From: an uncultured Planctomycetia bacterium
Lineage (GTDB): Bacteria; Omnitrophota; Gorgyraeia; JABMRG01
Direction of reading: 5' to 3'
Assembly: GCA_964634945.1 (NCBI GenBank)
Contig: CAZWMG010000004.1
Coordinates: 52,528-116,527 of the forward strand
DNA length: 64,000 bases
Below are positions 6,188 to 61,781 of the stretch, piece by piece; the first letter of the stretch is position 1, and every line of letters starts with the position of its first letter. Under the pieces are notes generated by a model, which was not told where the DNA came from, did no database searches, and saw only the letters and a program-made list of their open reading frames with translations. The translations under genes were made by a program, and so were the position numbers.

Positions 6188-6269
6188 ACTATTCCCTTTT
6201 TTAGTGTCTCGTTGTGCGTCGCGCGTATCGCGTATTGCGTAAAAACTGTAACGCGATACGCAATACGAA

Positions 6270-8870
<2,601 letters not shown>

Positions 8871-10286: not shown

Positions 10287-10367
10287 ATCAACAACCCTTA
10301 TTATTATAAATATATACTTTCTTAAAATAGTAATAGTAATTACTATTGTGTATAAGTCAATAACTCT

Positions 10368-11741
10368 TTAACTAACGTCACGTATTTTAGTTACGATATT
10401 CTCTACCACACTCTTAATATGTGGATTCTTTTTAATATCTTCTTCTATCTTATCACACGCATGGATTATAGTGGAATGATCCCTGCCGCCAAATAATCCG
10501 CCAATCTCAACAAGAGGAAGTTTTGTCATTTCCCTAGATAAAAACATTGCGACTTGCCTGGGGTATGCCACTTTCTTGGTCCGCTTTTTAATCCGCATGT
10601 CATTACTGCCAATACCAAAATATTCCGCGACAACAAATTGTATCCTCTCAACATTTATATTAACCTTGTTTTCAACAACAATTTCCTTTAATACGTCGCG
10701 AGCAACAGCGATATCTATCTTATGGCTGACAAGGGACGAATACGCAATTACCCTAATTAACGCCCCCTCTAATTCACGAATGTTGGCGGTAACATTATCC
10801 GCTATATAAGTAATTACATCCATAGGGACAACAACAGTCTCTTTTTCAAGTTTTTTCTTTAATATGGCGATGCGCGTTTCCATGTCAGGTGGCTGCATAT
10901 CCGTAACAAGGCCCCACTCAAAACGAGATACAAGCCTCTTCTCCATCGCCGGCATCTCTTTTGGGGATCTGTCACTAGAAAAAACAATCTGCTTATGCGC
11001 GTCATAAAGCGTGTTAAAGGTGTGAAAAAACTCTTCCTGAGTAGCCTCTTTACCGGATATAAAATGTATATCATCTATTAAAAGAACATCCTGGTGCCGG
11101 TATTTATCTTTAAATTTTTGCGCAGTCCGGTTCTGAATAGAGTTAATAAGTTGATTAGTAAATTTTTCACTCGATATATAAGTTACTTTCAAGCGGGGTT
11201 GTTTTGCAAGGAGATGTAGGCCAATGGCCTGCATTAAATGGGTCTTACCAAGCCCTACGCCGCCATAAATAAACAGAGGGTTGTACGCCTTGGCAGGGCT
11301 ATCAGCGACGGCAAGGGCAGCGGCATGCGAGAAGCGGTTGCACCCGCCTATTACAAAATTATCAAACGTGTAGCGCTGGTTAAGAGTGGTGTCTTGCCCC
11401 CGGGCAAGTCTATCAAAAGAACGAGAAAATAGTTTAAAGCCCCCCTTCTTGTCGTTTATTTGCTCCGCGTCTTGGCCCTCCTGCGGAGCGTGCGCGCACA
11501 CAACAAAATTAATTTTTATTCCTTCGCTGCCAATCTCCCGGACTGCAGCATTAACCTGATCCATATAATGGTCAAGGAGCCACTCCTTAAAAAAATTATT
11601 CGGCACCTCAACAATAATTGTATCGCCTTCTACCTTAGTTTGCTTAGTAGGCACAAACCACGTCTCATAGCTTTGCGGGCTGATCTGTTTATGTAAACAA
11701 GCTAGAATCGACGTCCAGGTGTTATCTGTTGCGTGTACCAT
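10368..11741 (-). CDS. dnaA: Chromosomal replication initiator DnaA. Start probably at the internal Met (MVHATDNTW); the track's longest frame runs to 11804.
   Basis: AAA+ Walker A GGVGLGKTHLMQAIG. Box VII. C-terminal HTH KVAYPRQVAMFLSREMT. Confidence 0.9.
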   Translation of the reverse strand: MVHATDNTWTSILACLHKQISPQSYETWFVPTKQTKVEGDTIIVEVPNNFFKEWLLDHYMDQVNAAVREIGSEGIKINFVVCAHAPQEGQDAEQINDKKGGFKLFSRSFDRLARGQDTTLNQRYTFDNFVIGGCNRFSHAAALAVADSPAKAYNPLFIYGGVGLGKTHLMQAIGLHLLAKQPRLKVTYISSEKFTNQLINSIQNRTAQKFKDKYRHQDVLLIDDIHFISGKEATQEEFFHTFNTLYDAHKQIVFSSDRSPKEMPAMEKRLVSRFEWGLVTDMQPPDMETRIAILKKKLEKETVVVPMDVITYIADNVTANIRELEGALIRVIAYSSLVSHKIDIAVARDVLKEIVVENKVNINVERIQFVVAEYFGIGSNDMRIKKRTKKVAYPRQVAMFLSREMTKLPLVEIGGLFGGRDHSTIIHACDKIEEDIKKNPHIKSVVENIVTKIRDVS

Positions 11742-12007
11742 ATAGAAAGACCTTGAAGTTTGCGTAAATTGTGTACAACTTGATATCATAATCAAGCGGC
11801 ACAAAAACGCACATATAATAAACAGCTACAATAAACATGTTGCCGCAGCCTTGCCGACGACAAAATAGTGAAAACAACAACACGGCTATTACTTTTTGCG
11901 TACAACACAGACAAGGTAGAACATAGCGCGCAAGACAACAGAACGCTTGCGCTAAACGAAATGATTATAACAGAAACAAGGGCATTTGCAAGAAAAAAGT
12001 TTTTAAC

Positions 12008-12035
12008 TTGACTTAGCGTGTGTTTATGATATACT
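12008..12035 (+). promoter_or_regulatory. Sigma70-like promoter for rpmH-rnpA-yidD-yidC (TTGACT, 16 nt, TGaTATACT extended -10)
   Basis: Read directly. The spacing and the extended -10 TG are good. Confidence 0.4.
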
Positions 12036-12043
12036 TTCTTACT

Positions 12044-12181
12044 ATGAAAAAACATATTAAACAGAAATCAAACTTGAAGCGAAAGCGCACGCACGGATTC
12101 AGGCAGCGCATGAGCACCACGGGTGGCCAGGCAGTGCTTAAGCGGCGAAGACAAAAAGGTCGGAAAGTTTTGTCTGCATGA
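12044..12181 (+). CDS. rpmH: 50S ribosomal protein L34
   Basis: 45 aa: [45 protein letters not shown]. Below the ORF-track size cutoff. Stop overlaps the rnpA start (ATGA). Confidence 0.85.
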
Positions 12182-12878: not shown

Positions 12879-14492
12879 ATGAATAACGAGAAAAGATTAT
12901 TTTTAGCTATCGGCCTATCAGTGCTTATAATAGTAAGTTATCAAGCATATATGAGAAAGTATGCTAAACCGTATCATCCGCAAAGCATGAGTGATACGGT
13001 TGTAGAAACCGAAAAAGCGGCGCCGGTAATTCGCAAAACAACAAAAGTGCAAGAGGATTCTGTTAGCGTGCGCGCTGTTCCGGATATTACAACAACCGTA
13101 AGCAACGATGTTTTTACAGCAATTTTTACAGATAATGGGGCAGCGATAAAAGAGCTATATCTAATGCAATATTTAAATAGCGCAGGCGAGCCCACATTAC
13201 TATGCAGGCCAATAGAGCAGACACCGTACTTATTAGCAACAACAGAGAAGGCAGAGGCTATGCGCAAATGGCGCGTGGTTAGCAATAATAGCAATCATAT
13301 TGTGTATAAAAGCACACTAGATGGAATAGAAATAATTAAAACATTTAATTTCTATAACACTAAGCATATTATAGGGTTAGAAGTCGCAATACGCAACACA
13401 ACGCAGACACATAAACAGGTAAATTACGCACTTGGTAGTGGAGCGGTTGAGGCAAGTAGTGGCTACCTAGACAGTAGGTATATTGGGGCTGATGTGGATA
13501 TAGCGGGTAAGGTTCTGAGAAAGCGGCCATCAGGAAAAACCATAACAGACGGCATTTACGTAACCGGTTCCCCCGCATGGGTTTCAGTGCACGATAGGTA
13601 TTTTTCATTAGTCTTAAAGCCAGAGCAGCAAGAAGAAGGGGCGATCATAAAAAGCAGTACAAAGAAGAATATATGGTCAAGCATAATATCAGGGCCAGTG
13701 GCTTTAGGCCCAAGCCAAGTTGTTACGAGAAGCTACGTTCAGTATGCAGGCCCAAGTGATATTGCATCGATCTCAGAGTTAGGCGCATCAGCAGGCAATG
13801 TAATAAGTTACGGGTTTTTCCATCCCGTAGCAAAGGTGCTTTTCAGGGCCCTGCGCATGTTTTATCGAATAACAGGTAATTACGGTTTATCCATTATTCT
13901 TTTATCGCTTACTATCAGCTTAATAATGATGCCGCTTACGAGAAAGAGCCTGCATTCCATGAAGGCTATGCAGGCGATTCAGCCGGAAACAGAACAAATA
14001 CGCAAGGCCTATAGCGACAATCCGCAAAAAATGAACAAAGAGATCATGGATCTCTATAAAAAGCATAAGATAAATCCTGTAGGAGGCTGTTTGCCAATGT
14101 TGTTGCAACTGCCGATTTTTATGTCTCTATATCAGGTCTTGTTGCGTAGCGTGGCATTGCGTGGGGCACATTTTTTATGGATTAAAGATCTCGCAGGGCC
14201 GGATGCGGCATTTACATTGCCGCAAAAATTCCCAATAATTGGCAACCATATTAATATATTACCAATTTTAATGGCTATTGCTATGTGGGGACAGCAAAAG
14301 ATGTCACAGGGTGGAGGTAAGGAGGTATCAGACCAGCAAAAGATGATGGCAACAATCATGCCTATAATGTTTGGCTTTATCTTTTATAACATGCCTTCCG
14401 GTCTTGTATTATATTGGTTCACAAACACACTGTTTATGCTGCTCATACAGGAAGTCGTCTTAAAGGTGCGCAAACCGGCGATCAGCCAGTAG
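12879..14492 (+). CDS. yidC: Membrane protein insertase YidC (start at MNNEKRLFLAIGL; the track ORF begins at 12834)
   Basis: Large periplasmic domain, then the conserved C-terminal 5-TM core (PMLLQLPIF..LYQ). Confidence 0.9.
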   Translation: MNNEKRLFLAIGLSVLIIVSYQAYMRKYAKPYHPQSMSDTVVETEKAAPVIRKTTKVQEDSVSVRAVPDITTTVSNDVFTAIFTDNGAAIKELYLMQYLNSAGEPTLLCRPIEQTPYLLATTEKAEAMRKWRVVSNNSNHIVYKSTLDGIEIIKTFNFYNTKHIIGLEVAIRNTTQTHKQVNYALGSGAVEASSGYLDSRYIGADVDIAGKVLRKRPSGKTITDGIYVTGSPAWVSVHDRYFSLVLKPEQQEEGAIIKSSTKKNIWSSIISGPVALGPSQVVTRSYVQYAGPSDIASISELGASAGNVISYGFFHPVAKVLFRALRMFYRITGNYGLSIILLSLTISLIMMPLTRKSLHSMKAMQAIQPETEQIRKAYSDNPQKMNKEIMDLYKKHKINPVGGCLPMLLQLPIFMSLYQVLLRSVALRGAHFLWIKDLAGPDAAFTLPQKFPIIGNHINILPILMAIAMWGQQKMSQGGGKEVSDQQKMMATIMPIMFGFIFYNMPSGLVLYWFTNTLFMLLIQEVVLKVRKPAISQ

Positions 14493-16428: not shown

Positions 16429-16458
16429 AATAGATACTAGGTGCAAAGGAAAAAAAGC

Positions 16459-16514
16459 ATAAAGTATAAAGTATAAAGTATAAAGGATAAAGGATAAAGG
16501 ATAAAGGATAAAGG
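16459..16514 (+). repeat. Tandem heptanucleotide array: (ATAAAGT)x3 then (ATAAAGG)x5
   Basis: Seen directly in the 5' leader of ndk. Confidence 0.9.
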
Positions 16515-17108: not shown

Positions 17109-17187
17109 ATAAGTTACAAGGCATAAGGATTTCCGCTGCAGGCGGGCCAGCCTTGGCTGGAAATACAAAATAGACGTTAATCCACGA

Positions 17188-17232
17188 CTTACAATTTACC
17201 ACTTACCACTTACCACTTACAACTTACAACCA
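17188..17232 (+). repeat. Tandem heptanucleotide array (ACTTACA / ACTTACC), about 6 copies
   Basis: Seen directly. The same family appears in reverse-complement orientation at 32046..32090. Confidence 0.85.
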
Positions 17233-20536: not shown

Positions 20537-20593
20537 TTATGCGGAGAGGCAAAGGCAAGGGTAGAGGAAAAGGTATATAGCATACATTTATGT

Positions 20594-24348: not shown

Positions 24349-24457
24349 GTAATTGCTACCCCCGCTGTTTCGCTTTGCGAAACAAAGCGACAGGGGTTAA
24401 TTCATCCCTCTTCTTGCTTGCGCAAGAAAGCAGAGGGGCTCATTAAGGAGACAAATC
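24349..24457 (+). promoter_or_regulatory. Structured leader: hairpin-1 (ends GGGG), TTAATTC, hairpin-2 (CCCTCTTCTTGC..GCAAGAAAGCAGAGGG), then SD AAGGAG. Duplicated upstream of the COG1900 gene (40145..40230).
   Basis: About 60 nt are nearly identical at the two loci. A third variant lies upstream of trkH. Confidence 0.5.
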
Positions 24458-24802: not shown

Positions 24803-24954
24803 TTTGCTAGTAATAGCAGAGGAAGTGGATAGTGGGTACCCCGATACCACAAACTTTGTTTGGGTACGGGGTTAATTCGCGCTTGTGAGTTATGTCGTTA
24901 CTTCGACACTCCATAACTCACGCGCTCATGAAAAAAACAAGCACATAATTCCCT

Positions 24955-28256: not shown

Positions 28257-28350
28257 TTCTTGTATCGCGTATTGCGTAAAGATACCGCAATACCTGCCTG
28301 CCGGCAGGCAGACGCATAACGCACGACGCAATACTGAACAAAGAAAAATT

Positions 28351-30390: not shown

Positions 30391-30727
30391 TATCTTGATT
30401 TCATACAAAAATATTGATATAGTAAAAGTGTCCCTGCTGTGTGCGTGGCGCTTTGATGCAACTTTGAGCCAACACCTTTATACCGGGAGCCCGACGTAAC
30501 AAGAGATAATGGCATGCTCTTGATAGCAAAGAGAAGCCTGAATGCTTGGACAGGGCACCCACCTAAATATAAGGGTTCAAAGTCCATCAGTTGCCCGGCA
30601 CGTGCGGGGATTGTTTTTCGTATTGCGTCGTGCGCCTGCCTGCCGGTAGGCAGGTATATCGTATCGCGTGACAATATTAACATAAAATATAAACGCAATA
30701 CGAGTCACTAGTAAACAAAATCATGCC

Positions 30728-32038: not shown

Positions 32039-32098
32039 TATAAAAACTATATAGCTGTAAGTTGTAAGTTTTAAGTCGTAAGTCCTAAGCATTAACTT

Positions 32099-32146
32099 CA
32101 AGACCGGTTCTCAAGCACAGGTGGTTGTGCTTGAGAACCGGTCTTG
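32099..32146. repeat. 48-nt perfect palindrome (REP-like): CAAGACCGGTTCTCAAGCACA-ggtggt-TGTGCTTGAGAACCGGTCTTG
   Basis: 20-21 bp stem. A near-identical copy (46/48) in inverted orientation lies at 61691..61738. Confidence 0.9.
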
Positions 32147-40144: not shown

Positions 40145-40230
40145 TAAAAATCCCTCGCTATTGCTTGGGATTAATTCGCCCCTCTTCTTGCTTTTGCAAG
40201 AAAGCAGAGGGGCTCATTAAGGAGACGATA
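40145..40230 (+). promoter_or_regulatory. Second copy of the hairpin-TTAATTC-hairpin-SD leader, upstream of the COG1900 gene
   Basis: TTAATTCGCCCCTCTTCTTGCTTTTGCAAGAAAGCAGAGGGGCTCATTAAGGAGAC is nearly identical to 24399..24452. Confidence 0.5.
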
Positions 40231-46035: not shown

Positions 46036-46189
46036 TAATATAGTTTAATATAAGCAATTTGACAAGGCACAAGGTGTAAGGCGCAAGGCGATTACTGCTA
46101 TCCCAAGCAGCCATCGCGTTATTCTTAGTCTTTGACTATAGATGATAATCTTGCGCCCTGTGCCTAATACCTATTTTCATCATAAAGCT

Positions 46190-47753: not shown

Positions 47754-47808
47754 AAAGGCGCATGTGATAAGGCACAAGGAAAAAGGATAAAGGTTAAAGG
47801 TTAAAAAA

Positions 47809-50715: not shown

Positions 50716-50808
50716 TTATAATGGATACTAGATGCTGGATGCAAGATGCTAGATACAAGGGTACAAGGCATAGGGCACAAGGAAAAAGGCAAAAGCAAAA
50801 AGGTTAAC

Positions 50809-51897
50809 ATGAAAAGAAAACCAAAAATAGAGAAGCGAAAACCGAAAAAGCATCTTATGACAGGAAATGAAGCTATTGGTGAGGGGGCGGTTCGCGCGGG
50901 ATGCGATCTCTACGCGGGATACCCTATTACGCCGCAGAATGAGCTTACCGCTTTTATGTCAAGGAGGATGCATGAGAAGAAAAGGATATTCATCCAGTCA
51001 GAAAGTGAGATATCTGCGATAAGCATGGTCTTTGGGGCTTCATTGACAGGCAAGCGGGCGATGACTTCTTCGTCGAGCCCTGGGATTAGTTTAAAGCAGG
51101 AAGGCATATCGTATCTCGCGGGTTGTCGTCTTCCGGGTGTAATAGTAAATGTTACGCGCGGCGGTCCCGGGTTAGGTAATATATCACCTAGTCAGGCAGA
51201 CTATTTTCAGGCAACAAAAGGTGGTGGCCATGGGGACTATCATGTTATAGTGTTGGCGCCTTCAACAGCCCAAGAGGCGATGAGCCTTACTATGTTAGCG
51301 TTCGATCTCGCGGATACTTATAGGTGCCCGGCTATGATACTTACAGATGGCATGTTAGGGCAGATGATGGAACCTGTCGAGATATCTAAGTTTAAATTTA
51401 AAAATTCAAATTCTGTTAGTAAAAAATGGGCATTGACAGGCGCTAAAGGGAGAAAGCCGCAATTTATTAAGTCGCTTTATCTCAAACCAGGCGGCTTAGA
51501 AAGACACAATACTAACCTGCAAGCCACTTATAATGAGATAAAAAAAAGAGAGGTAAGATGCGAGTCTCTGTATTGCAATAACGCGGAACTTATTGTGGTT
51601 GCTTATGGTAGTGTCAGTCGTATTGTACGCGCGGCGGTCAAACGCTTAAAAAGTAAGGGAAAACATGTAGGCATGCTAAGGCCCATATCTCTGTGGCCGT
51701 TTCCGGAGAAGGCATTAAAAAAGTATACAAATAAAACAAAGAGGTTTTTAGTAATAGAGATGAGCGCGGGCCAGATGATAGAAGATGTCAAGCTTGCGGT
51801 AGAGGGGAACGCAAAGGTAGATTTCTACGGCAGGACAGGAGGCGGCATCCCTACGCAGAAAGAGGTTGAGGCCAGGATCTCTAGGTGTCTAAGATGA
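50809..51897 (+). CDS. 2-oxoacid:ferredoxin oxidoreductase alpha subunit (start uncertain; the track ORF begins at 50746)
   Basis: TGNEAIGEGAVRAGCDLYAGYPITPQNE N-terminal signature. Confidence 0.75.
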   Translation: MKRKPKIEKRKPKKHLMTGNEAIGEGAVRAGCDLYAGYPITPQNELTAFMSRRMHEKKRIFIQSESEISAISMVFGASLTGKRAMTSSSSPGISLKQEGISYLAGCRLPGVIVNVTRGGPGLGNISPSQADYFQATKGGGHGDYHVIVLAPSTAQEAMSLTMLAFDLADTYRCPAMILTDGMLGQMMEPVEISKFKFKNSNSVSKKWALTGAKGRKPQFIKSLYLKPGGLERHNTNLQATYNEIKKREVRCESLYCNNAELIVVAYGSVSRIVRAAVKRLKSKGKHVGMLRPISLWPFPEKALKKYTNKTKRFLVIEMSAGQMIEDVKLAVEGNAKVDFYGRTGGGIPTQKEVEARISRCLR

Positions 51898-54536: not shown

Positions 54537-54549
54537 CACAGTTAATCGC

Positions 54550-54717
54550 TGCCCCGTGGTATAATTTTTTAACCATGCATCGTGATTGCAGAGCAATCTC
54601 TGATGCATGGGGCAACACGGCTGATTCTGCAGTGAACCAGAGCCCCGAAGGGGCACGGTACACTGCAGCAGTAAACCGTGTTTTGTGTAACAAAACTCTG
54701 GTTTGCTGCTGGTTCAG
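54550..54717 (+). pseudogene. Degenerate partial copy of the 5' half of tRNA-Gln. Two hairpin-rich insertions interrupt it. The first 24 nt, including a TGgTATAAT, are duplicated from the intact gene.
   Basis: TTAATCGCTGCCCCGTGGTATAAT matches 54748..54771. GGCAACACGGCTGATTCTG and CTGGTTCAG match internal tRNA segments. There is no T-arm or acceptor 3' half. Confidence 0.6.
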
Positions 54718-54755
54718 TATAATATTTATGAAAGAAAAGTTCTCTGATTAATCGC

Positions 54756-54830
54756 TGCCCCGTAGTATAATTGGCAACACGGCTGATTCTGGTTCAGCTA
54801 TTCTTGGTTCGAGTCCAAGCGGGGCAGCCA
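54756..54830 (+). tRNA. tRNA-Gln (CTG)
   Basis: Acceptor TGCCCCG/CGGGGCA, anticodon stem GCTGA/TCAGC with loop TTCTGGT, T-arm CTTGGTTCGAGTCCAAG, CCA. One A-C mismatch in the D-stem. Confidence 0.7.
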
Positions 54831-54892
54831 TCAGCCTTCGCGCTTTTAACGCGCAGGTTACTTATGCGCTACGGCTGATTGGCTAGCATATT

Positions 54893-55144
54893 ATGTATTA
54901 CACCTATATTCTTAGAAGCAAGAAAGATAATAGTAAATTCTATATTGGATATACAGCTAATTTAGAGAAGCGGTTAAAGGAGCATAACGAAAGTAGAATG
55001 TTGTATACTAAGCGTCATGCTCCTTGGTATGTAGAGACATACGTATCATTCACTAATCAGCAGCTAGCCAAGCAGTTTGAACAATATCTCAAAAGTGGTT
55101 CTGGCAAAACATTTCTCAAGCGAAGGCTGACAAGTCAGCCGTAG
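54893..55144 (+). CDS. Standalone GIY-YIG nuclease-domain protein (YhbQ/UPF0213-like), 83 aa
   Basis: YYTYIL and FYIGYT motifs, plus conserved R and E (KEHN). Confidence 0.75.
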   Translation: MYYTYILRSKKDNSKFYIGYTANLEKRLKEHNESRMLYTKRHAPWYVETYVSFTNQQLAKQFEQYLKSGSGKTFLKRRLTSQP

Positions 55145-55246
55145 CTGCCAAGTTATATTGCCTGAGAAAATGCGAAGGCTGATGGCACATGGATAAGGCC
55201 GGCGAAGCCTGGACACGATATAGCCTGTTGCAAAGGCGAAGCTGTG

Positions 55247-57199: not shown

Positions 57200-57254
57200 T
57201 AAGCAAGATAGTCCTTATGTGCCACAACCGTTATTCCATATCAAAAAATACATT

Positions 57255-58001
57255 AAATAGGGACAGCGCCCATTTAAATTTTTTCTTGCTTATGGGCGAT
57301 TCCTGTAATATTATATATTCATGCCAAGAACCGCAAGAATAGTTTTCGAAGAATATCCGCACCATATCACTCAAAAAGGAAATTACGGGCAGAAGGTATT
57401 TACTAAAAATTCCGAATACAGTATTTACCTCGAATGGCTAAATGAATATGCTATCAAGTATAAATTAAGCATACTTGCATATTGCCTTATGCCCAACCAT
57501 GTTCATTTTGCTGCTATTCCAAATAAGTCCGATTCTCTATCCAAGACTTTTAATACATGTCATATGCGTTATGCGCAGTATTTTAACAAACGCAATAGAA
57601 TTTCAGGCCACTTGTGGAAAGGCAGATTTTATTCCGCTGTTTTAGATGATAATCATTTATATTACGTTGTAAGATACATAGAAAATAACCCGGTGCGAGC
57701 CAAGCTTGTAAAAAGAGCGGGGGATTGGAAGTGGTCGAGTGCGAATACCCATTTAAATGGCGCAAAAAGTATTTTGCATCTGGGCAACATAAGGAAATAT
57801 ATTGATAATATAGACTGGGCAGACTATCTGCAAAAAAGAGAAGATGACGCAATTGTCAAAACCATAAGAGATACGACACTGAGCGGGAAGCCCATGGGAA
57901 GTGATTCGTTTATAGAAAAGCTAGAAAAACTATCAGGAAAAAGTTTAAGGACATTACCGCGCGGCAGGCCTCGGCAAAAATAAATGGGCGCTGTCCCTAT
58001 T
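57255..58001 (+). mobile_element. IS200/IS605-type Y1 (REP-associated tyrosine transposase-like) unit. 21-nt imperfect-palindromic ends in inverted orientation (57255..57275 and 57981..58001) flank the transposase gene.
   Basis: AAATAGGGACAGCGCCCATTT on the left is the exact reverse complement of AAATGGGCGCTGTCCCTATTT on the right. Confidence 0.7.
57321..57983 (+). CDS. Y1 HUH transposase (IS200-like / RAYT family)
   Basis: HUH motif MPNHVHF. Catalytic Tyr region YIENNPVRAKLV. 220 aa. No tnpB partner. Confidence 0.8.
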   Translation: MPRTARIVFEEYPHHITQKGNYGQKVFTKNSEYSIYLEWLNEYAIKYKLSILAYCLMPNHVHFAAIPNKSDSLSKTFNTCHMRYAQYFNKRNRISGHLWKGRFYSAVLDDNHLYYVVRYIENNPVRAKLVKRAGDWKWSSANTHLNGAKSILHLGNIRKYIDNIDWADYLQKREDDAIVKTIRDTTLSGKPMGSDSFIEKLEKLSGKSLRTLPRGRPRQK

Positions 58002-58202
58002 TAACGGCTTTTTTGACTATAGCGGGAATCCCTCTAACATGTTCGATATCAAATGGGCTCGCCTTCGGGTTTACAGCGTATCCTATGTGCAAGATATTTT
58101 CCAGATATAAAAACAGCATTAATTTGGATTATTATTGAAATGTATTGTTTAAGCAGATAGAATATTAGATAGTATAAGTATATTCCCAAAAAAGGAGGAC
58201 GT

Positions 58203-61690: not shown

Positions 61691-61738
61691 CAAGACCGGT
61701 TCTCAAGCACAACCACCTGTGCTCAAGAACCGGTCTTG
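61691..61738. repeat. Second copy of the 48-nt REP-like palindrome, inverted relative to 32099..32146, with 2 substitutions
   Basis: CAAGACCGGTTCTCAAGCACAACCACCTGTGCTCAAGAACCGGTCTTG. Confidence 0.9.
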
Positions 61739-61781
61739 AGCCATAATCAGCTAATAATGTTTAATTTTCCTGGGTTTTTTC

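Follow-up and report, generated by a model that had tools for sequence, protein, structure and literature searches.

Do the short palindromes that recur in the intergenic spacers of an uncultured bacterium belong to the repetitive extragenic palindromic (REP) and bacterial interspersed mosaic elements (BIMEs), or do they form a repeat family of another kind? The question is raised by three spacers, gyrB-gyrA, pheS-pheT and 6S RNA-rarA, in a stretch of 64,000 nt (hereafter the window) whose host falls within Candidatus Omnitrophota according to its PheS and GyrA homologues. A preliminary description of this DNA had assigned the three copies to the BIME/REP type and had placed them between convergent or co-directional essential genes. 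All three spacers proved to be co-directional and none convergent. The source genome was read over the window and a further ~3 kb, with three copies in total. The explanation that we favour, at slightly better than even confidence, is a lineage-specific and probably selfish or neutral family of foldback repeats, with arms made of heptanucleotide simple sequence repeats (SSRs), which spread by copying and insertion and was remodelled by slippage.

The repeat family is real and, within the window, confined to the three sites. The 19-mer GTATCGCGTATTGCGTAAA occurred exactly twice, at 6225 and 28262, against 0.01 occurrences expected from shuffles, and CGCAATACG occurred seven times against 0.65 expected, with five of the seven inside the three spacers. 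With up to one mismatch allowed, CGTATTGCGT was found 14 times (3.9 expected). Nine of these matches were in the three elements, which amount to ~290 nt in total, and the other five, in coding sequence, correspond to chance level. The string CCTGCCTGCCGG[C/T]AGGCAG was present at 28293 and 30635, with an expectation of 0. Sites 2 and 3 shared an inverted match of 45 nt (82%, 28290-28334 versus 30613-30657), the second longest inverted repeat of the window. Three strings named in the preliminary description, namely the 19-mer, CGCAATACG and the (CCTG)n/(CAGG)n palindrome, were recovered at the sites given there and far above chance. Absent from that description was a tandem substructure of 7 nt, detected by TRF at 6222-6241 (period 7, 2.9 copies, 92% match) and placed by our own array scan at 6214-6241.

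Every copy was closed by terminal inverted repeats, CGTATTGCG(T)...(A)CGCAATACG, which enclosed 10 to 66 nt, the whole element being non-coding and ~45 to 95 nt long. The arms were composed of two to four tandem heptamer units GCGTATY, with the variants GCGTCGT and GCGTTAT, followed by the complement. The arms of sites 2 and 3 could also be read in a 7-nt register, and these two copies enclosed a (CCTG)2CC/GG(CAGG)2 palindrome inside the stem. Copy 1, in the gyrB-gyrA spacer (6214..6269, minus strand; sequence, TRF and RNA fold), had on the plus strand the left part GTGCGTC GCGCGTATC GCGTATT GCGT, with an arm at 6223-6240 and a loop at 6241-6250, and the complementary arm ACGCGATACGCAATACG at 6251-6267. 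On the transcribed minus strand it began 3 nt past the gyrB stop codon (6270-6272), its end was separated from the gyrA start (6187) by 36 nt, and it read TAA-TTC-GTATTGC-GTATCGC-GT, loop, AC-GCAATAC-GCGATAC-GCGCGAC-GCACAAC in the direction of transcription.

Copy 2 made up the whole 94-nt pheS-pheT spacer (28257..28350, plus strand; sequence, comparison and RNA fold), between pheS and pheT coding sequences that are intact in the window. It consisted of the left arm GTATCGC GTATTGC GT (28262-28277), the inner complement CGCAATAC (28286-28293), an inner hairpin formed by the perfect 18-nt palindrome CTGCCTGCCGGCAGGCAG of the (CCTG)n/(CAGG)n type (28294..28311), the right arm ACGCATA ACGCACG ACGCAATAC (28312-28334) and an A-rich tail extending to the pheT ATG (28351). 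In the direction of transcription it read TAA-TTCTT-GTATCGC-GTATTGC-GT..CGCAATAC-[CTGCCTGCCGGCAGGCAG]-AC-GCATAAC-GCACGAC-GCAATAC.

Copy 3 (30615..30705, plus strand; sequence, inverted match and RNA fold) had been reported as lying upstream of rarA, which is correct, but it begins 5 nt past the 3′ end of 6S RNA and stops ~25 nt before rarA. Its reported inverted orientation is ambiguous since the elements are quasi-palindromic. It comprised the left arm CGTATTG CGTCGTG CG (30619-30634), the palindrome CCTGCCTGCCGGTAGGCAGG (30635-30654), the units GTATATC GTATCGC GT (30655-30670), an AT-rich loop and the right arm ACGCAATACG (30693-30702). The sole mismatch in the palindrome was a G-U pair on the sense strand. 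Site 3 read TTTTTC-GTATTGC-GTCGTGC-GC-[CTGCCTGCCGGTAGGCAG]-GTATATC-GTATCGC-GT..AC-GCAATAC. The 6S RNA gene that abuts copy 3 with its 3′ end (ssrS, 30428..30614, plus strand; Rfam RF00013, 87.6 bits, E 5.7e-16) was located directly downstream of pheT, with a promoter-like TTGATT-17-TGnTATAGT at 30395-30423, and was kept in five out of five relatives.

In five relatives (L124-L128, PheS identity 79-90%) pheS and pheT were separated by 1 nt (TAA/TGA-T-ATG). Because of this 1-nt junction, copy 2 is an insertion of ~93 nt exactly between the stop and the start codon, with a possible target-site duplication of a single T at most. The gyrB-gyrA spacers of three relatives (L141-L143; GyrA identities 94, 92 and 91%) were alignable with copy 1 and its surroundings at the ends only and were otherwise unrelated. 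Those of L141 and L143 held other hairpins, one of them built of heptads with the arms TTNTTGG / ATAACNG, and that of L142 was 49 nt long and unstructured. Unrelated hairpins also followed 6S RNA in L124 and L127, and z-scores of the relatives' hairpins at the two loci reached -4.4. The stretch behind 6S RNA is a hot spot for hairpin elements of different kinds. In L128 the post-6S spacer (13303-13562) had two segments, of 38 nt and 62 nt, each duplicated in tandem without a mismatch (2.0 copies, 100% match), a mode of spacer growth unlike that by heptads.

The GTATTGCG element was not found in ~135 kb of the nearest relatives' syntenic loci. These relatives contain other heptamer arrays, and in one of them (L128:17521) a long hairpin of another kind has the 20-mer of the copy-2 palindrome region at its tip. 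Restriction to the three sites together with absence from close relatives was what the preliminary description had named as speaking against its family. The absence from those ~135 kb bears this objection out in part, whereas two distant Omnitrophota metagenome-assembled genomes (MAGs) share the combination of units, with CGTATTGCGTCGTGCG and ACGCACGACGCAATACG. No species other than the present one yielded the composite with the palindrome. The elements are not ancestral spacer sequence; they are lineage-specific and patchily distributed, and they look dispensable since close relatives are without them, which argues against their being necessary.

Other samples of the same species were informative in two respects. 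Copy 1 was unchanged in three of them, and no variation in unit number was detected among three to five samples, copies 1 and 2 being identical in three samples each (assembled contigs). In addition, short-read contigs from at least five samples ended or began at 30628-30653, inside copy 3, which suggests further copies elsewhere in the genome.

The heptamer character of the arms is shared with other spacers of the window. A period of 7 was the dominant tandem period, with six arrays against 0-1 for each of the periods 6 and 8-11, and intergenic autocorrelation peaked at lags 7, 14 and 21 (0.353, 0.326 and 0.314 against ~0.28), a peak that coding sequence did not have. Arrays of AAAGGAT (8.7 copies), ACTTACC (6), TGTAAGT (4), CAAGGCG and AAAGGTT were present, and some, such as that of AAAGGAT, are longer than the element arms with their two to four units. 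Direct arrays with an AAGG/TAAG core or the complement CTTAC were found in the spacers at 16452-16514, 17184-17230, 20557-20589, 32053-32089, 46057-46090, 47762-47805 and 50722-50850. The AAGG/CTTAC arrays were mostly on the sense strand and upstream of genes, one of them running to within 3 nt of a GTG start codon (47809), and they recall the TAACTGA repeats of Beggiatoaceae, which have been proposed as translation-related sites. That all heptamer arrays here are inverted pairs around GC palindromes was ruled out, as the purine-rich arrays are unstructured as RNA: those of the AAGG and CTTAC types at 16.4 and 17.1 kb folded no better than shuffles (z-scores of -0.4 and -0.5). Among the heptamer arrays, only those of the GCGTATY class and a few more tend to form hairpins.

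From these observations we suggest the following course of events. The pheS-pheT copy would have been inserted whole into the 1-nt junction of two translationally coupled genes. At sites 2 and 3, one element was probably copied from another copy rather than grown in place, because the two share an ordered run of different units together with the palindrome. The arms would then lengthen and diversify by slipped-strand mispairing in steps of 7 nt, as in the other heptamer-filled spacers of this genome, and would remain complementary since the element can persist in no other form than a compact hairpin. Further copies might arise by a copy-and-insert route acting on the extruded hairpin, and they would be tolerated within operons because they fold on themselves.

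Several points weigh against this explanation. Only three copies were present in the DNA that was read, and at ~80% similarity over 45 nt they give no sign of very recent bursts. Neither a target-site duplication nor a mobilising enzyme was identified. That sites 1 and 2 have a 19-mer in common says less about common descent than it seems to, since it can occur in any two arrays built from the same pair of units. The lack of unit-number polymorphism among the samples indicates that slippage is not fast. The contig breaks in copy 3 could come from strain heterogeneity and not from extra copies, and in relatives two of the sites again have a hairpin of some kind, which could mean that a structure is selected there and that the elements are not neutral.

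When each copy was folded as RNA, as the preliminary description had proposed, a stable hairpin was predicted for all three, between -25 and -34 kcal/mol: -24.8 kcal/mol (z -2.4) for copy 1, -28.7 kcal/mol (z -3.7) for copy 2 and -34.1 kcal/mol (z -2.9) for copy 3, the core of which alone gave -32.6 kcal/mol (z -3.7). An outer pairing, CGUAUUGCG/CGCAAUACG, closed all three predicted hairpins; within it, copies 2 and 3 had the (CCTG)n/(CAGG)n hairpin. The outer stem of copy 2 was predicted to begin 3 nt past the UAA and to close 8 nt ahead of the AUG; the pheS stop and the pheT start would lie within ~10 nt of each other through the stem, and termination-reinitiation coupling could survive the insertion. 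A U-tract after the hairpin was not seen at any of the three sites, where the tails are A-rich or mixed, and a terminator consensus scan made no call at any of them. Intrinsic terminators were ruled out since the U-tract is lacking at all three sites. Known RNA families were likewise ruled out by an Rfam search (gathering threshold and E ≤ 1), which returned no family for the elements and 6S RNA as the sole match. The elements are probably transcribed within operons as stable stem-loops that start 3-5 nt past the upstream stop codon or RNA end. They are most likely neutral or mildly useful in effect, and by analogy with REPs they could plausibly act as a barrier to 3′-exonuclease decay of the upstream RNA.

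The same folds could be taken to indicate selected cis-acting RNA structures, with possible roles as processing or decay barriers, as attenuators or terminators dependent on Rho or another factor, or as coupling devices for the relative expression of gyrB/gyrA, pheS/pheT and 6S/rarA. The uniform start 3-5 nt past an upstream stop or RNA end, the stable sense-strand fold and the G-U pair formed on the sense strand by the only mismatch of the copy-3 palindrome are in agreement with such a role, as are the other hairpins, with z-scores down to -4.4, in the gyrB-gyrA spacers of L141 and L143 and after 6S RNA in L124 and L127. We nevertheless consider it unlikely. Five relatives need no pheS-pheT spacer, L142 has an unstructured gyrB-gyrA spacer of 49 nt, both gene pairs encode 1:1 complexes and the U-tract is lacking. 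The sequence is not conserved in relatives, and covariation cannot separate a maintained structure from repeated insertion.

Membership in the REP/BIME elements proper was assessed mainly through their transposase. The window contains a gene for a Y1 (HUH) transposase resembling the REP-associated tyrosine transposases (RAYTs), which together with its flanks occupies 57241..58016 (plus strand); it is not part of the heptamer family but is a candidate mobiliser. The open reading frame (ORF, 57321-57983) contains HVH and, as its tyrosine motif, YIENNP, and it matched Pfam Y1_Tnp with an E of 2e-13. It scored 73 bits against a cut-off of 80 with the NCBIfam model for REP-associated tyrosine transposases, and 21 bits with the IS200 model. 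Inverted repeats of 41 nt (57241-57281 and 57976-58016) flank the gene in the classical manner, each with the hairpin AAATAGGGACAGCGCCCATTT, which had no further copy in the window and is unrelated to the GCGTATY family. The comparison with RAYT presence that the preliminary description had recommended thus found a RAYT-like gene, but one flanked by a different hairpin and not by GCGTATY arrays. A GTAG/GTGG head was found in none of the three elements, which start with TTC(TT)GTAT(T/C)GCG in the direction of transcription, and a tblastn search of 120 loci from other phyla (758 kb) detected no RAYT homologue near the repeat, a weak test given that RAYTs are single-copy genes.

If the elements were true REP/BIME sequences, they would be the cognate repeats of a RAYT, spread by single-strand hairpin transposition and serving as mRNA 3′ stabilisers or as gyrase or IHF sites, as in E. 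coli. All three are short imperfect palindromes in transcribed intergenic DNA, their layout is mosaic, a RAYT-like gene is present within the same 64 kb, and the pheS-pheT insertion without an evident target duplication is what HUH-mediated insertion predicts. Against these agreements, the flanks of the RAYT carry a different hairpin (GGGACAGCGCCC), found at those two places only in the window, a GT[AG]G head is missing from the elements, many phyla rather than one species have the heptamer unit, and the 120 loci of other phyla lack an adjoining RAYT homologue. The BIME/REP assignment therefore held for the intergenic hairpin repeats, the mosaic layout and at least one insertion, and was not supported by the link to a RAYT, the head and the widely shared arm unit, nor by the absence of the elements from ~135 kb of the nearest relatives. 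Because the local RAYT is flanked by the unrelated AAATAGGGACAGCGCCCATTT hairpins, membership in REP proper is not supported, and we regard it as quite improbable. The resemblance is one of function and architecture only, and the REP/BIME reading has support by analogy alone.

A scan of 185,579 species genomes with the 18-mer GTATYGCGTATTGCGTAA listed at least 120 loci, against ~35 that we estimate to be expected by chance for the whole collection. Among the matches listed, most had Y = T and formed perfect tandem units, and 64% were outside stop-to-stop ORFs, which cover 87% of the sequence. The complement CGCAATAC was located within 120 nt downstream in 46 of the 125 matches listed (median gap 21 nt) and upstream in one. 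By record title, the loci listed came from Chloroflexota (79), Calditrichota (9), Planctomycetota (7) and Bacteroidota/Rhodothermota (7), with fewer from Omnitrophota, Atribacterota, Armatimonadota, Kiritimatiellia, Gemmatimonadota, Poribacteria and Deltaproteobacteria. The [GTATTGC]n hairpin unit was present in at least 11 phylum-level groups, mostly in Chloroflexota. Period 7 was dominant in the listed loci as well (318 arrays against 36-115 for other periods), and other units (CGTGAAA, GATGCGT and ACTGATT) recurred in different MAGs, often as inverted pairs. The genes flanking the hits in other phyla were co-directional in 37 cases, convergent in 11 and divergent in 6, with no clear difference from background gaps. 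Loops were not conserved among the listed loci; what is shared across phyla is the unit and not a mobile element.

A phage vector received no support from a scan of viral contigs, which gave one match, and a search of metagenomes for the composite core CCGGCAGGCAG..CGACGCAATAC gave nine matches, all of them chance matches in a conserved coding gene of high-GC genomes. In two Anaerolineae MAGs, JALWZT01 (L004, L009, L027, L063, L070, L073, L076, L087 and L119) and DRQW01 (L090, L112 and L123), the GTATTGC hairpin was part of a repeat unit of ~200 nt. Each genome had many of these units, scattered and in places tandem (75-98% identity), and they were adjoined by ACTGATT and GATGCGT arrays. In the Omnitrophota MAG STD1_39 (L092:5540-5780), a spacer of 240 nt consisted almost entirely of nested heptad arrays (CGTATTG, AAAACGC, GTATTGC, TAAGCTT and GCGCTTT), several of which are mutually complementary, suggesting long multi-register hairpins.

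Periodic heptads have known counterparts in the binding sites of proteins such as HutP (NAG-N4 repeats), the cold-shock proteins (~7 nt per domain) and ribosomal protein S1. The arrays might accordingly be periodic sites for an oligomeric RNA- or DNA-binding protein with one subunit per 7 nt, and the hairpin a switch that hides or exposes them. Mismatches in 179 seed-flanking units from other phyla were distributed non-uniformly over the positions G-T-A-T-T-G-C (28, 29, 45, 62, 26, 56 and 10), which suggests that a C-G-T core is spared among neighbouring units, although this positional test is weak as the units within one array are not independent. A few units (CGTGAAA, GATGCGT and GTATTGC) do recur across classes and phyla, and binding of S1, Csp or CsrA has been proposed for the TAACTGA heptamer repeats (MacGregor 2015, PMC4679880). 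However, 138 arrays more than 300 nt from the seeds used many different units, no candidate protein or co-occurrence was found, and the copies in the window have only two to four units per arm. We consider this protein-binding role decidedly doubtful. Least credible of all, and in our view highly improbable, is that there is no real family but three independent local simple-sequence expansions sharing a unit by chance: heptamer arrays are indeed common in the spacers of this genome and the shared 19-mer is merely 2.7 units long, but slippage cannot build a structured insert of 93 nt out of a 1-nt junction, different units in the same order as well as a near-identical 20-nt palindrome are common to sites 2 and 3, and the motif counts far exceed those of shuffles.

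There is a small chance that heptad-armed hairpins (GTATTGC/GCAATAC here; CGTGAAA/TTTCACG and GATGCGT/ACGCATC in Chloroflexota) form a distinct and undescribed cross-phylum class with a dedicated mechanism. If so, the shared heptad vocabulary and the C-G-T core would reflect a heptad-periodic binding factor or a process of hairpin-dependent slippage or insertion, and the mechanism in Omnitrophota could set a complete element into the 1-nt junction of coupled essential genes. In the open literature, neither heptad-armed hairpins nor relevant strings of GTATTGC dimers were found (the one match was an unrelated crustacean study), nor was a description of intergenic repeats in Omnitrophota.

The window contained further repeats and features. 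A near-perfect palindrome of 49 nt, CAAGACCGGTTCTCAAGCACA..TGTGCTTGAGAACCGGTCTTG, was present in two copies (32098-32146 and 61691-61739), one downstream of rarA and the other downstream of a gene with a SpoIIE domain. It had an RNA fold of -50 kcal/mol (z -9), its central loop was inverted between the copies, and it may represent a further foldback family or resemble a terminator. All Logan contigs ended inside it, short-read contigs breaking at this repeated palindrome in the same way as at 30628-30653. A repeat of 60 nt with 92% identity, GGGGTTAATTC-hairpin-CTCATTAAGGAGAC, was found at 24393-24452 and 40167-40226. It is located immediately in front of two unrelated genes and terminates in a Shine-Dalgarno sequence, and its GGGGTTAATTC motif borders other hairpins in the window (24860-24935) and in a relative (L127:13360-13400). 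The preliminary description called the present elements a second family, and this repeat is probably the "first" that it implies. At 54537-55188, a 5′ fragment of tRNA-Gln (CGCTGCCCCGTGGTATAAT) was duplicated ~210 nt upstream of the intact tRNA-Gln (54756-54830), which is followed by a small GIY-YIG ORF (~54893-55150); the arrangement looks like the scar of an integrated element. The replication origin region (10287-12177) was recognised by a switch in the sign of the GC skew near 12 kb, at which the leftward genes dnaA, dnaN, dciA, gyrB and gyrA and the rightward genes rpmH, rnpA, yidD and yidC diverge. All three elements were within ~20 kb of it.

As a repeat family with three copies, the elements are ordinary genome furniture and call for no new biology. 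One practical consequence is that such elements break short-read assemblies of Omnitrophota genomes. The pheS-pheT copy is a natural experiment, in which a hairpin of 93 nt stands, apparently harmlessly, between the pheS stop and the pheT start of genes that are coupled in every relative examined, and it makes testable whether a self-folding insert preserves translational coupling. The elements also tie REP-like foldbacks to heptanucleotide SSRs, with heptad hairpins in Chloroflexota, Planctomycetota, Calditrichota, Omnitrophota and other groups. The dominance of 7 nt among bacterial long SSRs has been a question since 2007, and hairpin-paired heptad arrays offer a concrete substrate for it. 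This cross-phylum pattern is the part most worth following.

Compared with known systems, the elements resemble intrinsic terminators in that a GC-containing stem-loop follows closely on the end of a gene or RNA. Unlike terminators, they have no U-tract, were not called by the consensus scan and in two cases are located inside operons of obligatory 1:1 partners. With the REP/BIME elements of E. coli, Pseudomonas and Stenotrophomonas they share short imperfect palindromes in transcribed spacers, mosaic hairpin modules, at least one copy that is an insertion without an obvious target duplication, and a RAYT-like gene with hairpins of its own in the window. They differ in their arms of tandem heptamers, the lack of a GTAG-type head, the unrelated palindrome that flanks the local RAYT, a unit that is common across phyla rather than species-specific, and the three copies seen in the window.

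The foldback elements of the miniature inverted-repeat transposable element (MITE) type (Correia/NEMIS, RUP, BOX and ERIC) likewise have terminal inverted repeats around a non-coding core, form a long hairpin when transcribed, vary in presence among relatives (compare the empty pheS-pheT site of L124-L128) and insert into operon spacers. The present elements, however, are much shorter (45-95 nt), no target-site duplication was seen, they are without a known parent insertion sequence, and their copies diverge by unit turnover and not by point mutation alone.

The other resemblance is to tandem heptamers: short tandemly repeated repetitive (STRR) sequences, long SSRs (LSSRs) and TAACTGA repeats. 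Cyanobacterial STRR sequences are heptamers. Among the long SSRs of prokaryotes, the heptanucleotide class is the most abundant (Mrazek et al. 2007, as summarised in PMC4679880), and TAACTGA repeats are scattered across phyla (Beggiatoaceae, Cyanobacteria and Bacteroidetes), with 169 direct sets against one indirect (MacGregor 2015, PMC4679880). The 7-nt tandem unit, the strictly intergenic position, the sporadic recurrence of one heptamer across phyla and slippage as the presumed origin are common to these repeats and to ours. Those repeats are direct and mostly unstructured, whereas here inverted pairs with two to four units per arm form hairpins and are joined to a palindrome based on a tetranucleotide, and GCGTATT/GTATTGC were not found in the open literature. 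The elements thus join two known kinds, REP/MITE-like foldbacks and STRR/LSSR-like heptamer repeats.

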